From contig OX597831.1 of assembly GCA_951406725.2 (NCBI GenBank), forward strand, positions 29,636,001 to 29,700,000: DNA of 64,000 nucleotides, read 5' to 3'. The position numbers and the translations under genes were made by a program. The stretch is from Octopus vulgaris (lineage: Eukaryota). Shown piece after piece: positions 3,044-61,977 of the stretch. The notes below the pieces were generated by a model that ran no database searches, was not told the DNA's origin, and saw only the letters and a list, made by a program, of their open reading frames with translations. Within the stretch, counting starts at the first letter, position 1; each line of letters opens with the position of its first letter.

Positions 3044-3089
3044 GGCAGTCCGACGATGACTTAGCTGACGAAACTTCGAAGTCATTGTC
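3044..3089 (+). ncRNA. Candidate minimal type I hammerhead ribozyme (U4C core variant)
   Basis: GGCAGT-CCGACGA-tgacttagctgac-GAAA-CTTCGAAG-TC-ATTGTC: 6-bp stem I with G-U pairs, palindromic stem III ACTTCGAAGT, GUC site. Stem II is weak. Confidence 0.55.
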
Positions 3090-4275
3090 AACAACATTCT
3101 TATATAAGAATGATATATGTTTATGTACATATACATAAACATATAGACACACACACATATACATACATACACACATATATACATATACATATATTATGAT
3201 ATGTAGAAAAATACAAACTGTGACAAGAACGCATAACACTTAGAAGACGATACAACAAACACAGACAGGACATTCGAAGCCCTCAGTCTTCAGTCAAGAA
3301 CCGGATCATCGTAGTAATTTCGGCTGATATATATATATATATATATATATATATATATATATATATATCTTTGTGTATATGTATGTATGTATGCATGTAT
3401 ATATATATATATGTATATATATGTATGTATGTACGTACGTGTGCTTGTGTATATATAGCATGTGACAGATCGATATATTAATCGCTGATACGTTGTTCAC
3501 TTCCAGTCGATGACGTACGTATGTGTGTATTGTAGTGTGTGCGCGCGTGTGTGTATGCCAGAGAGAGAGAGAGGAGAAAGGAAGGAAGGAAGGAAGGAAG
3601 GCAGATAAGCGGGCAGAGTGACAGAGAAATAGAGAGAAAGTGACAAAGAGAGAAGGGCAGATATTTGAACCATGTCTCAGTTCAATGGTAAACAACAACA
3701 AAAAAAAGAACAAATCACAACACATGATAACGTCGCCATATTGAGCATTCATCCGCCTGTAGAGGGCGCTGTACTCTGGTGCATTCGTATGATTTATAAC
3801 TATCGCTAAGGTGATAAATCCTCTATAGTGTGCATGTTCAGTTATCTTTAGGTGCAACCGACAGGAGGCGTTGCTGTCGGAACATGGTGTTAACTATTGA
3901 TATTAATGAGATGTGTGAGTGATCGATTCATAGTTACAGCAAATATTTCTACACAGAACCTAATTGGTTTGGCTGCCAACAATCGGGTTTCGCCCGTATA
4001 CGTGTGTATGTGTGTGCTGTATGTGTTTGTGTTATAGTTGTGTATGTCGTGTGTGTGTGTTAATAAATACAAGATAAAGGACTCAATACGAACGAGGGTT
4101 TTTTCTATATTTATTAATATCGTTATCTTTTAGTTATACAACTCTAGCATAACAAGCAGTTAACGCAAAACTCTGAGTAACAACCGTGATATGCATATAT
4201 ATATATATATATATATATATATATATAGTATACAGTATATATATATACTATATATATATGTACATATATATATCA

Positions 4276-4508
4276 CGTGACCGACCAGGCTATGTTGCTA
4301 CACATCGCTGGTCACAGTGCGCTAAGCGAGCAGGCAAACAGAAGAAAGAGTGAGAGAAAATTGCGGCGAAAGAGTAGAGCAGGGATCGCCACCACACCCT
4401 GCCGGAGCTTTAGGTGTTTTCGCTCAATAACGCCCGGTCTGGGAATCGAAACCGCGATCCTACGACCGCGAGTCCGCTGCCCTAACCACTGGGCCATTGC
4501 GCCTCCAC
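4276..4508 (-). mobile_element. SINE family C head with deleted body and a different tail
   Basis: Reverse complement of GGAGGCGCAATGGCCCAGTGGTTAGGGCAGCGGACTCGCGGTCGTAGGATCGCGGTTTCGATTCCCAGACC. The 3' part differs from 1869-2254. Confidence 0.8.
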
Positions 4509-5107
4509 GCATATATATATATACATATATACGCATATATATATGCATATATATATATATGTATATATATATATATATACACATATATATGCATGTATAT
4601 ATATATGTGTGTATATATACATATGCATATATGGGTACAGGTGTTTACCAACAGTAAACAACATGAAATACAAAAACAAATGAGTTCAATACGCAAACAA
4701 TGAAAGAAAGAGAGCGGGAGAGATATACACACACACACATACACACACACACACATATGCATATATACATATATACATATTCTGCCTATATGTCTGTGCA
4801 CACCTGTCAATGCAATCTATACTAGAAGGTTTGCGAATCTAACGGAGGCCTAAAAGGACGTTTTAAGATCGACAAAAGTCACAACTTATCTGCAGCTCTT
4901 GGTGGTCCAAATCGGATGTGCAATCGGATATGTATTGTCTGGTTTTTTACAGCCACAGCAGATGCTTTGACGGTTCTAAAGTACCGGAGGTGGAAAATTC
5001 TGCATAAGGAGTTGAAAACCACTATATATATATATATATATATATATATATATATATATATATATACAAATGTACACACATGCAAACATATGCATAAAGC
5101 TTCCCGT

Positions 5108-5282
5108 TATATATATATATATATATATATATATATATATATATATATATATATATATATATATATATATATATATATATATATATATATATATATATAT
5201 ATATATATATATATATATATATATATATATATATATATATATATATATATATATATATATATATATATATATATATATATAT
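5108..5282. repeat. Long pure (TA)n microsatellite, one of many
   Basis: Directly visible. Similar tracts at 7658-7766 and 33901-34088. Confidence 0.98.
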
Positions 5283-5861
5283 GCATAAAAATATGTATGT
5301 AAATGTGTGTGCATGTATAAATAGAGGGAGTGGATATATATATATATATATATATATATATAGATAGATAGATAGATAGATAGATAGATAGATAGATAGA
5401 TAGATAGATAGATAGATAGATAGATAGACAAACAGACAGACAGTAGGAGGCAGAGAGCAAAACTCAATGTGCCCTGCGGAATGAATGTAGACCACAAAGA
5501 CGCAAAATGTTATGTTCAATACCATAAAACAGAAATTCTTCCTTGCTGAAATTATTTTTCTCGCCAAATAATCGTGCATTATACAGCATAGGCCTGACAC
5601 GTACCATATTTTTCGTCAACGAACCATGTAGTTACAGCATTGGTCATTCTTGTACGACATTTTCTCGCCATTCAGCTATGCACTTACAAAACTGGCCAGG
5701 CAGGAACCACGCTTTCTCGACGTGTTAACCCAATGAAACCATGCAACTTCCATAAATCAAGGTTTTCAAATCAAAACAAAACTAAAAGTAAAATAATGAT
5801 CAAACAATACTATTCCGTTGGAAAGGTCGTTAGAGCATCGGCAAAAATATTTTGTGGTATT

Positions 5862-59189: not shown

Positions 59190-59452
59190 TCTAGCAAAGA
59201 TACAAAGCTACATCGTTAGAATAGAGACAACGAAAACAATGTCCCATTTTAAACTTGAGAGAAGTTTTGCATATTTTTATTGTTCTACTTACAGATTGTA
59301 TTTTTAGTGTGCGAGCTAGTTGGTTGATTTCTTTTTGTGAAAACCCTAGCTTATCTGGACTGTCACACAGGCATTTTCTTACAAAACCAAGTGCACCAAT
59401 TATCATTGGTATAAATGTGAATTTATAATCTGGATATAAAAGCTGGAGATTT
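59190..59452 (-). mobile_element. 3' end of an RLE-type (R4/NeSL-like) non-LTR element
   Basis: LQLLYPDYKFTFIPMIIGALGFV...LKIQSVSRTIKICK. Similar to the end of 12770-13480. Confidence 0.75.
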
Positions 59453-59885
59453 AGGCATGTGCTTTCTGCTATAGCCTCAGGCCGACCAAAGCCTTATCAG
59501 TGGGGTTTGATAGACGTTGTATATATATGGATTTGTGTGTGTGTATCTTTGAGTCAGTATTTGTCCCCTACCAGCGATTGATAACCGGTATTTGGTATGC
59601 TTACCTTCCTAACCGGTTCGACAAAAGTAACGCGATGGAATAAGTGGCTGGCTTTAAAAAAATGATAAGCACTGGTGTCGATTCGTTCGACTAAAATACT
59701 TCAGGGCAGTGCTCCAGCATGGCCGCTATCGAGTGACTGAAAGAAATAAAATATAAAGGCTGTGTGTGTGTGTGTGTGTGTGCGCGCGTGTGGGTGTATC
59801 TATGCATGAATGTATATAAATATAAATATGAATATAAGTATGTGTGTATATAGATAGATAGATAGATAGATAGATAGATAGATAA

Positions 59886-60095
59886 GGCAGCGAGCTGGCA
59901 GAAACGTTAGTACGCCGGGCTAAATGCTTAGCGGTATTTCGTGTCTTTACGTTCTGAGTTCAAATTCCGTCGAGGTCGACTTTACCTTTTATCCTTTCGG
60001 GGTTGATAAATTAAGTACCAATTGCGTACTGGGGTCGATCTAATCAACGGGCCCCCTCCCACAAAATTTCGGGCCTTGTACCTAGAGTAGAAAAG
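59886..60095 (+). mobile_element. SINE family B, short-tail form, within (GATA)n; inverted copy at 60852-61057
   Basis: Canonical head and core; tail CCCCCTCCC.CAAAATTTCGGGCCTTGT.CCTAGAGTAGAAAAGA. Confidence 0.9.
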
Positions 60096-61543
60096 ATAGA
60101 TAGATAGATAGATAGATGTGTGTTTGTGTATTTAGGTATTTATGTATGCGGGTATGTATGTGTGTAGGGGTGTTGGTTGTGGTGATGGCTGTTATTTTGC
60201 TTGCAACGGTAGTTTTGGTGATGGTACTAACGTGGTAGTGGTTGTGGTGCTGATGATGGTGGAGGCGGTGATAGTACTGGGGTTGTCATGTGGGGGTGGG
60301 TCTGTCTGCGGCATATTTGGAGCGTCAAAAAAACTTCATCTACTTAACCGGAACTAATTGGGAAGGTAGGGGGTCTTTTAAACGCACGGACACTCACGTG
60401 CACACGTACGTACGTGTGTGTTGTGTATATGTGTACACCCATATTCTTTTATTCTTTTCTTTCAGTCATTAGATTGTGGCCATGCTGGAGCACCGCCTTG
60501 AAGGATTTTAGTCGAACGATTTGACCCAAGTAGTATTTTTCTCTTGAAATCCTAGTACTTATCTTATCGGTTACTTTTGCCGAATAGCTATAATACGGGG
60601 ACGTAAACACACCAAGACCGGTTTCAAGCGGTGGTGAGAGACAAACACAGAAATACACACACTCAGACAGATATATGTGTATATGCATACGATGGACTTC
60701 TTACAGTTTCTATCTACCAAATCCACTCACAATGCTTTGGGTAGCCCGAGGTGCCACGCAGTGGGATTGAACCCGAAACCATGTCGTTGGGAAGCAAGCT
60801 TCTTACCACACAATCACGCTCGTGCATATGTATGTATAAATACATGAATATTCTTTTCTAGTCAAGGCCCGAAATTTTGGGGGAGAGGACCAGTCGATTA
60901 GATCGATCCCAGTATGCAACTGGTGCTTAATTTATTGACCCCAAAAAGATGAAAGGCAAAGTCGACCTCGGTGGAATTTGAACTCGGAACGTAAAGACGG
61001 ACGAAATACTGCTAAGCATTTCGCCCGGCGTGCTAACGTTTCTGCCAGCTTGCCGCCTTATAAATATTGTATATATACATATCTATAAGAGTATGGGTAC
61101 GTGTGTGTGTGTGTGTGTGTGTGTGTGTGTATACATGCATACTTCTGTGTCTGGAGAGAACTACGTGATAACTTGGAAGCTGTACTCGCTGTCACACTAA
61201 ATAGATACTGCATCATTCGGAATGCAATTGATGACGATAGGTGGAACGATACAAATCTGCAAGACCTTATTAACATTTAAAGGATGAGCAACAAAACAAG
61301 ATGCCTTCCTTCACAACCTTGATATCATGCAGGTGGCCAGTCAAAGACTCTAAATTGAAAAGAGAAAAATAACACATACTCTAGTAGTAGTAGTAGTAGT
61401 AGTAGTAGTAGTAGTAGTTGTAGTACAGACACAAGAACACACACGTACGCGCATACACATACATGCATACAAGAATACTTATATATACACACAGACTATT
61501 GTACATCACACGTACACATACATATACATATATATATATATAT

Positions 61544-61977
61544 GACGTTGATGTTCGCCTGGGGCTAAATGCAACAGTAACACCCCCACCACCCTGCCCT
61601 GTCCCTAGCCATATTCAGATGGCTTTAGTCCCTTATGTTATGGAGCAGTTACTGTCTATATCTCATTTAGAGAATTATTATTGCTGTCGAACAGATTTTC
61701 GAAATCAGCAAATGTATTTTGCTTGAAAATCTATATATAAATATCCTGCAGAGTGGGTTGTTCGTTGATGATAGGCAATACACCTTGAAACCTAGATCCG
61801 TGTGTGGTTTCCGCTTCATCGGGGAATTATCTCCCTTTGCAGGATAAAGGACACCGTGATGGTGTCAAGCCTATCTGGCGACGTTGATGTTCGCCTGGGG
61901 CTAAATGCAACAGTAACACCCCCACCACCCTGCCCTGTCCCTAGCCATATTCAGATGGCTTTAGTCCCTTATGTTAT
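61544..61977 (+). repeat. 336-bp unit with exact 98-bp terminal direct repeats between two (TA)n tracts
   Basis: 61544-61641 is identical to 61880-61977 (GACGTTGATG...CCCTTATGTTAT). Confidence 0.95.

Follow-up and report, generated by a model that had tools for sequence, protein, structure and literature searches.

Hammerhead-bearing islands within TA repeats of an Octopus vulgaris contig are probably truncated 3' ends of Penelope-like elements

Penelope-like elements (PLEs) of the Hydra clade insert into (TA)n repeats and carry hammerhead ribozymes near their 3' end, as does Hydra-1_Obim of Octopus bimaculoides (Craig et al. 2021, PMC8557442). Inverted, 5'-truncated copies with a tail on one side are a described layout of PLEs, non-autonomous PLEs such as MRC1 are known, and the function of the hammerhead in endonuclease-bearing PLEs is called unclear (PMC8557442). 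The minimal hammerheads of metazoan PLEs are mostly single motifs, 'probably related to truncated PLEs', while some form opposite-strand pairs 100-700 bp apart, and their activity as monomers is weak (Cervera and De la Pena 2014, PMC4209133). The non-LTR retrozymes (LTR, long terminal repeat) are defined by head-to-tail tandem units with a hammerhead in each (PMC7229834; bioRxiv 10.64898/2026.07.22.740005). For O. vulgaris, a repeat annotation reports 31 recently active Penelope-like families, with ribozymes unmentioned in the available part of that paper (PMC13282606). Here, we analyze the short islands that lie between microsatellites in a 64,000-nucleotide stretch of the O. vulgaris genome (contig OX597831.1, positions 29,636,001 to 29,700,000, referred to as the window), some of which bear hammerhead motifs.

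We consider it likely that these islands are 5'-truncated 3' ends of several PLE families, inserted in TA repeats and now inactive. The hammerhead-bearing stubs likely belong to the Hydra clade, and most likely the islands represent no new kind of element. The original prediction, made from the window alone, described PLE-type, hammerhead-bearing sequences that target (TA)n. This description stands.

Simple repeats make up approximately 26% of the window, and masking them leaves 222 islands of at least 30 bases, many of which are copies of a few families resembling short interspersed elements (SINEs). The block 41762-47562 recurs in tandem at 47665-53372 (5.8 kb, 96.9% identity) with a gap of 100 N in between, which is probably an assembly or haplotype duplication. 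The second copy (47600-53372) was excluded from all counts, and the copies at 48518 and 49766 were rejected as independent ones because both lie inside the duplicated block. The resulting 198 non-repeat islands (44,518 bases) were scanned with a type I hammerhead descriptor (helix I of at least 3 bp, CUGANGA, helix II of at least 2 bp, GAAA, helix III of at least 3 bp, NUH) against a background of 300 dinucleotide shuffles. Three complete hammerheads were found, with cores at 10959(-), 11952(-) and 36174(+), whereas the shuffles give a mean of 0.03 and none of the 300 reaches three. Hammerheads thus exceed those in shuffled islands, as had been supposed. Tolerating U4C and a missing helix II adds 3050(+), giving four versus 0.12 expected (0 of 300 shuffles), a relaxation picked after this site had been seen.

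The best-preserved hammerhead (36168-36257) lies in the stub 36168-36287(+), whose 3' end is at a TA tract, and was overlooked by the original prediction. Its helices measure 6, 5 and 3-4 bp, and it alone among the window hammerheads retains G10.1-C11.1. The solo stub 10849-10962(-), with a complete hammerhead (core 10959) and a long loop II, begins within about 4 nt of helix I and is homologous to 36174 (71% alike). Two compensatory pairs distinguish their helices II, and 89% of cells are paired versus 29-54% when slid. These pairs are suggestive of the structure, in a covariation that is equalled in 109 of 500 shuffles and comes from only two sequences. A second solo stub, 3042-3125(+), holds a degenerate type I hammerhead (3044-3089) with a 6-bp helix I, a U4C core at 3050 and no helix II, and its island begins about 4 nt or less from helix I. 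Helix III is a perfect palindrome at 3050 and 36174, a palindrome around one base at 11952, and an imperfect one at 10959. At 11952, helix I, the core, helix III and the cleavage base are identical to those of the published Hydra-2_aMil. Five hammerheads had been proposed, at 3044, 10884, 11911, 13605 and 61763. Those at 10884 (core 10959) and 11911 (core 11952) are complete and the one at 3044 is degenerate, but 13605 and 61763 gave no hammerhead match in three scans, and 13605 was rejected as a hammerhead.

Rfam reported no hammerhead family for five short stretches at E cut-offs of 10 or 5, and for the whole window the 150 rows listed of 745 are repeat-driven matches with no hammerhead among them. 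Pattern scans of viral contigs and genome contigs also gave no match. Folding of 14 stretches yielded no z-score below -2.1, and the energies do not set the hammerhead stretches apart. The hammerhead fold of the monomer lies 5-14 kcal/mol above the minimum, in agreement with the weak monomer activity of PLE hammerheads (PMC4209133).

We directly observe an arm-and-tail anatomy beside the motifs. A common plan underlies the fold-backs at 11887, 42613 and 43967, with two arms joined head to head at their 5' ends. One arm stops at an AT step, and the other continues via a tail of 65-115 nt into the microsatellite. This 3' tail, present on one arm only, carries CCACTGGT. In the island 11887-12104, the arm without a tail (11887-11988, -) contains the hammerhead 11956-11919 (core 11952) with a 2-bp helix II, and has the short 3' end. 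The arm with a tail (11989-12104, +) begins inside helix III and extends through 65-70 nt with CCACTGGT to the long 3' end; the inverted arms 11881-11931 and 11989-12039 match at 94%. The fold-back 42613-42869 has a 12-nt spacer between its arms (42731-42793 and 42806-42869), and the fold-back 43967-44202 an 11-nt spacer (44062-44135 and 44147-44202), each with the CCACTGGT tail on one arm. No hammerhead was detected in these two by the descriptor scan or Rfam. An inverted truncated partner and a one-sided tail, together with the breakpoints that vary in the 11887 family, constitute the insertion architecture of PLEs. Island alignment adds a short solo copy of the 42613 family (44782-44830, +), and a tail-only stub (11715-11815, -) carries CCACTGGT 39 nt from its 3' end and is homologous to the 42613 tail.

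All four fold-backs originally named (11887, 17866, 42731 and 44057) are real inverted repeats, but 17866 has the opposite geometry. This palindrome of 146 bp (17866-18011) is centred on a TA tract and has perfect unique arms of 38 bp. It is probably unrelated to the other fold-backs and may have arisen by template switching or be an artefact of the assembly.

The motif ACCAGTGG, said to be shared by four islands, is CCACTGGT read on the reverse strand. It has five exact matches in the window, one of them inside the duplicated block, so that four independent matches stand, versus 0.9 expected (14 of 1000 shuffles). All four lie 39-50 nt from the end of a tract or tail (0 of 1000 shuffles). The shared 8-mer is weak evidence by itself, because some GC-rich 8-mer does equally well in 35 of 200 shuffled sets in a post-hoc control. 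Three of the four carriers (11715, 42613 and 43967) align beyond the motif, and 12047 shares the 8-mer only.

The island 11887-12104 (218 bp) is the one island that we compared with public sequence runs, four of which were aligned, as contigs only. It is contained wholly or partly in 21 of the 24 listed runs, which carry eight organism labels, and 20 of them contain half or more of its words. None of these runs is recorded as RNA, although run X20 may be one. The 11887 family is very abundant, with 13,219 contigs on the 218-bp island in run X1. The islands had been called unique, which is wrong for this one, and the expectation that at least one family is multi-copy is borne out. In X1 the summed depth is approximately 3 million on the arms versus 2,377 in the junction bin, and the junction bin of X7, X10 and X20 is zero. 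Summed contig depth is no copy number, and an empty junction bin is a gap in contigs, meaningful only along with arm-to-arm joints. There are 31 such joints, of which the 15 shown all lie at different places, with 1-2 contigs each and 0-7 shared letters or filler. No listed public piece covers the whole island.

Meanwhile, the family has two 3' ends, at 12039 and 12102-12104, each followed by TA. A common continuation upstream of 11988 is present in all four runs, and in a 404-nt contig of X10, 201 nt further upstream are followed by the hammerhead arm and then the tail. Because the joints are variable, the 3' ends fixed and the X10 contig continues upstream, the unit of the family appears to be upstream-hammerhead-tail, and the fold-back would arise with each insertion. 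We rejected CCACTGGT as a strict 8-base signal, since 35% of the X1 depth alters its third base, in the loop of a small hairpin. It was also rejected as a general Hydra motif, as the 3' ends of the six Hydra consensus sequences in the supplement of PMC8557442 do not contain it.

The variant at 11951 in this family is U4C. It accounts for 225,922 of 345,612 of the summed depth in X1 (approximately 65%) and 121 of 159 in X20 (76%), both from organism A, and is zero in X7 and X10 (organisms C and E). According to PMC3088659, the U4C change reduces in vitro activity considerably but still allows viroid infectivity. The X1 depth drops about sixfold across the ribozyme, which is confounded by edge effects and sequence variation and is unused here as evidence of truncation.

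The hammerhead type of 11952 also occurs in metagenome sequences. A pattern scan found it in at least 120 loci, and the coral-type figures given from here on refer to the listed matches. The DNA is probably coral, because one subfamily among these loci matches the Hydra-2_Amil 3' end by eye. The set is biased, in that the pattern requires an entire ribozyme and a partner that extends further than about 60 nt upstream escapes detection. It comprises 138 arms, 127 of them non-duplicate. Hydra-type open reading frames (ORFs) match in 9 of 120 loci, and L014, L023 (= L097), L066 and L100 pass from the ORF C-terminus into the hammerhead. At L044 (300-2650), a hammerhead, its tail and (TA)9 precede a full-length Hydra-type ORF, which is followed by a second partial copy; this locus is a clean example of an upstream pseudo-LTR (pLTR). 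Linkage of this hammerhead type to an ORF is thus shown in another animal, and we infer that the octopus families have longer coding parents. As a separate observation, at L066 (388-520) a short-ended arm and, about 60 nt beyond it, a related second hammerhead with the same orientation form a small head-to-tail dimer.

Among the coral-type arms, an inverted partner is present in 45 of 89 that are resolved, and the 3' ends cluster near +32 and +101. A duplication of 9-15 bp occurs at 8 of 33 single arms. Most 3' flanks are AT-rich rather than pure TA, with a TA hexamer at 12 of 70 short ends and 6 of 23 long ends. U4C is found in 0 of 127 arms. The 5' ends gather upstream of the ribozyme: 67 of the 105 arms at risk halt within 12 nt upstream of helix I, versus 2 of 38 in the next 38 nt, in a tally that leaves out 8 of 125 arms belonging to other subfamilies. 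All 30 anchor arms of fold-backs begin within about 11 nt of helix I, and none of the 30 partner arms starts at the cleavage site. A literature search over titles and the beginnings of abstracts in a partial collection gave no match on such a 5' pile-up or on a U4C expansion.

How would such islands form? The GIY-YIG endonuclease would nick the TA-rich target, and the reverse transcriptase (RT) would prime on one DNA end at the RNA 3' end, producing the arm with a tail. Priming on the other DNA end at an internal AU-rich site would produce the arm without a tail. Both copies would stop early and then be linked head to head, with microhomology or filler bases at the joint, and the target duplication would be hidden within the TA tract, lengthening it. 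We deduce the priming steps from the anatomy of the islands and from target-primed reverse transcription in general. Copies retaining the core must derive from uncleaved RNA, and therefore cleavage would not define the stub. The proposal that self-cleavage shapes the elements finds no support in this material, as copies keep the whole ribozyme and no partner arm of the coral type begins at the cleavage site (0 of 30). The pile-up before helix I would require an extra cause, namely a transcript start at that place, release of the enzyme at the fold, or microhomology with an AT-rich stretch. Only the first of these would imply true non-autonomous elements.

Several points weigh against reading the islands as truncated PLE ends. 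No window island is linked to an ORF, with one island compared with public runs. The metagenome evidence comes from another animal and from loci chosen by the search pattern, and plain random truncation fails to explain the 5' ends of the coral-type arms (67 of 105 versus 2 of 38). Some of the arm-to-arm joints may be spurious, as their sides of 21-28 letters at 80% likeness fall in an unreliable range. Finally, the fold-backs 42613 and 43967 seem to lack the hammerhead as a mark of their clade, and Naiad PLEs also target TA.

An alternative is SINE-like mobilisation, in which PLE enzymes act in trans on a short RNA that is itself transcribed and begins a few bases upstream of helix I. The RNA would consist of hammerhead and tail, approximately 100-200 nt, or approximately 375 nt for the 11887 family. 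We regard this route, with RNAs of these sizes, as rather unlikely. The pile-up is what it would produce: the 67 of 105 coral-type arms, all 30 anchor arms, and the islands at 3044 and 10959 lie close to helix I, and the arms of 42613 and 43967 start 11-12 nt from each other. The share of the U4C lineage in X1 and X20, with none in X7 and X10, fits as well, and MRC1-type PLEs offer a precedent. On the other hand, junctions vary by copy, and the left arm of 11887 includes 32 nt ahead of helix I, upstream of which the family extends by 201 nt or more. Full elements whose transcript starts in the upstream pLTR could also account for the pile-up, as could dissociation of the enzyme at the fold or microhomology at the AT-rich stretch before helix I. 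Set against MRC1-type elements, the 11887 family has fixed 3' ends but variable junctions. A broader form of the idea would make the pLTR of Hydra PLEs a transcription unit of its own, starting just before helix I, with uncleaved RNA as the main template, which seems doubtful to us. Equally tentative is its corollary that the unit is pasted singly or head to head and that a U4C sub-family out-multiplied the intact one in one octopus lineage. If true, the hammerhead fold would be a handle for recognition or dimerisation, and cleavage would be dispensable. For the pLTR-only non-autonomy that had been proposed, the variable junctions and the upstream sequence fit truncation instead, while the sharp 5' pile-up keeps a short template alive.

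Retrozymes had been proposed as well. In that reading, hammerhead units in tandem would cleave themselves into monomers, which would circularise and be inserted again by PLE enzymes. Sizes do overlap at 150-450 bp, monomers of retrozyme families exist, and the element 61544-61977 is a 1.3-unit direct repeat with a period of 336. However, head-to-tail repeats occur in none of the four hammerhead islands, where pairs are inverted instead. The motif at 61765 has no helix I and falls outside the 98-bp repeat, and coral-type partner arms never start at the cleavage site (0 of 30). We therefore set this identity aside as very improbable. Still harder to credit is that chance motifs combined with repair-made inverted repeats in repeat-rich DNA. 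Chance accounts for 13605 and perhaps for 61763 and 17866, and the shuffled sets that match the four-island 8-mer (35 of 200) and the unremarkable z-scores of the 14 folded stretches agree with it. The three complete hammerheads versus 0.03 expected, the abundance in public runs, and the homologous pair with its two compensatory pairs in helix II (two sequences, equalled in 109 of 500 shuffles) speak against it. A chance origin is ruled out for 10959, 11952 and 36174. Truncation of PLE copies at insertion thus remains the explanation that we favor.

The PLE in the window lies at 13761-17476(-) and is a decayed copy with marks of the Hydra clade, RT followed by GIY-YIG, with a coding remnant at approximately 17350-14824. 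By tblastn with eight full-length homologues, the N-terminal/RT part spans 17350-15848 and the endonuclease part 15441-14824; the Pfam match to GIY-YIG (E 0.02) is below the curated cut-off. The N-terminal frame has KWK and DKT, in line with the RWK/DKT mark of the Hydra clade. Of the CxCX5C linker of the clade, CxC is present and the third cysteine position reads F, and no CCHH is visible by eye. Among its ten best homologues, two named proteins are from O. bimaculoides and O. sinensis. The element was correctly recognized as a PLE with RT and GIY-YIG, but its ORF carries several stops and frameshifts, and a SINE copy lies inside its 3' part (approximately 14401-14638). When 38 islands, with four pieces from the PLE ends among them, were aligned all against all, none of the 14 best pairs contained the PLE. 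It had been named as the likely driver of the islands. We reject it in this role because its ORF is broken and its ends align to no island; it is a dead relative.

Near the 3' end of this PLE, 13800(-) shows a degenerate core, helix II and a short helix III, with G at the cleavage position. It has no adjacent helix I and so differs from the canonical 3' hammerhead of the Hydra clade; we read the degenerate core as the decay of a dead copy. The six bases before this core are perfectly complemented just past a (TA)23 tract (13800-13696, -). Expansion of the tract within the hammerhead of this PLE may explain the arrangement, as may chance.

The TA-flanked element 61544-61977(+), 434 bp long, contains a perfect 98-bp direct repeat with copies 336 bp apart and is probably young, given this repeat. 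Its motif at 61765(+) has a C3U core and Hydra-like helices II and III. We regard the element as the best candidate in the window for a pLTR-like or non-autonomous unit, with a putative affiliation. It has two short blocks in common by eye with 17660-17890, a pair that is not among the significant island alignments. A two-copy TA-flanked family (3195-3325 and 9960-10195, -, 75%) has CUGAAGA and GAA. Both copies lack one A of GAAA as well as helix I and were rejected as hammerheads; they may represent a half-core like that described for Naiads.

Of the abundant SINE-like families (about 20 sites in addition to 32540-33265, 41352-41760 and 14401-14638), some contain internal subrepeats of 184-217 bp in tandem and several are interrupted by (TA)n tracts. 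Decayed coding remnants at 1000-1860, 12767-13484 and 59159-59480 are mutually related (72-76% between 1017-1257 and 12892-13162) and presumably resemble the C-terminal portions of a non-LTR retrotransposon whose endonuclease is of the restriction-like type. Directly upstream of the 36174 hammerhead, 35900-36070(+) is a short remnant that we take to resemble the C-terminus of an RTE-type long interspersed element.

As best explained, the islands are ordinary, representing more octopus families of a published class, and their use lies mainly in repeat annotation, because the stubs hide in masked microsatellites and may be very numerous. They also bear on the role of the hammerhead in PLEs. In the coral-type loci, 5' ends gather upstream of the ribozyme and not at the cut site, and U4C, which is reported to lower activity considerably in vitro, dominates the copies of one organism. 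The role of cleavage can be tested in a young, very abundant family that has both alleles of the core.

Among known systems, the non-LTR retrozymes share with the islands their short length, non-coding content, type I hammerhead and kinship to the pLTRs of PLEs, but the tandem hammerhead units of retrozymes are absent from the window hammerhead islands. Naiad PLEs (Naiad_Obim and Naiad_Ovul, PMC8557442) likewise target (TA)n, leave inverted truncated copies with tails and are present in Octopus; as described there, they have no canonical hammerhead. They are a possible, putative source of the hammerhead-less fold-backs 42613 and 43967 only. The hammerheads of PMC4209133 resemble those of the window in their palindromic helix III and weak monomer fold. 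They differ from them in that the window retains G10.1-C11.1 only at 36174 and U4C is common in the 11887 family of one organism. As for the Hydra clade itself, the hammerhead and 3' end of Hydra-1_Obim match no window family by eye, window tails measure 65-115 nt versus 30-40 in Hydra-clade PLEs, and 10959 and 36174 have a long loop II. Nevertheless, Hydra-clade PLEs share with the window families the (TA)n target, a type I hammerhead approximately 30-130 nt from the 3' end and a short palindromic helix III. They share with the window PLE the C-terminal GIY-YIG and the DKT motif, and with the window fold-backs the inverted truncated copy with a one-sided tail.

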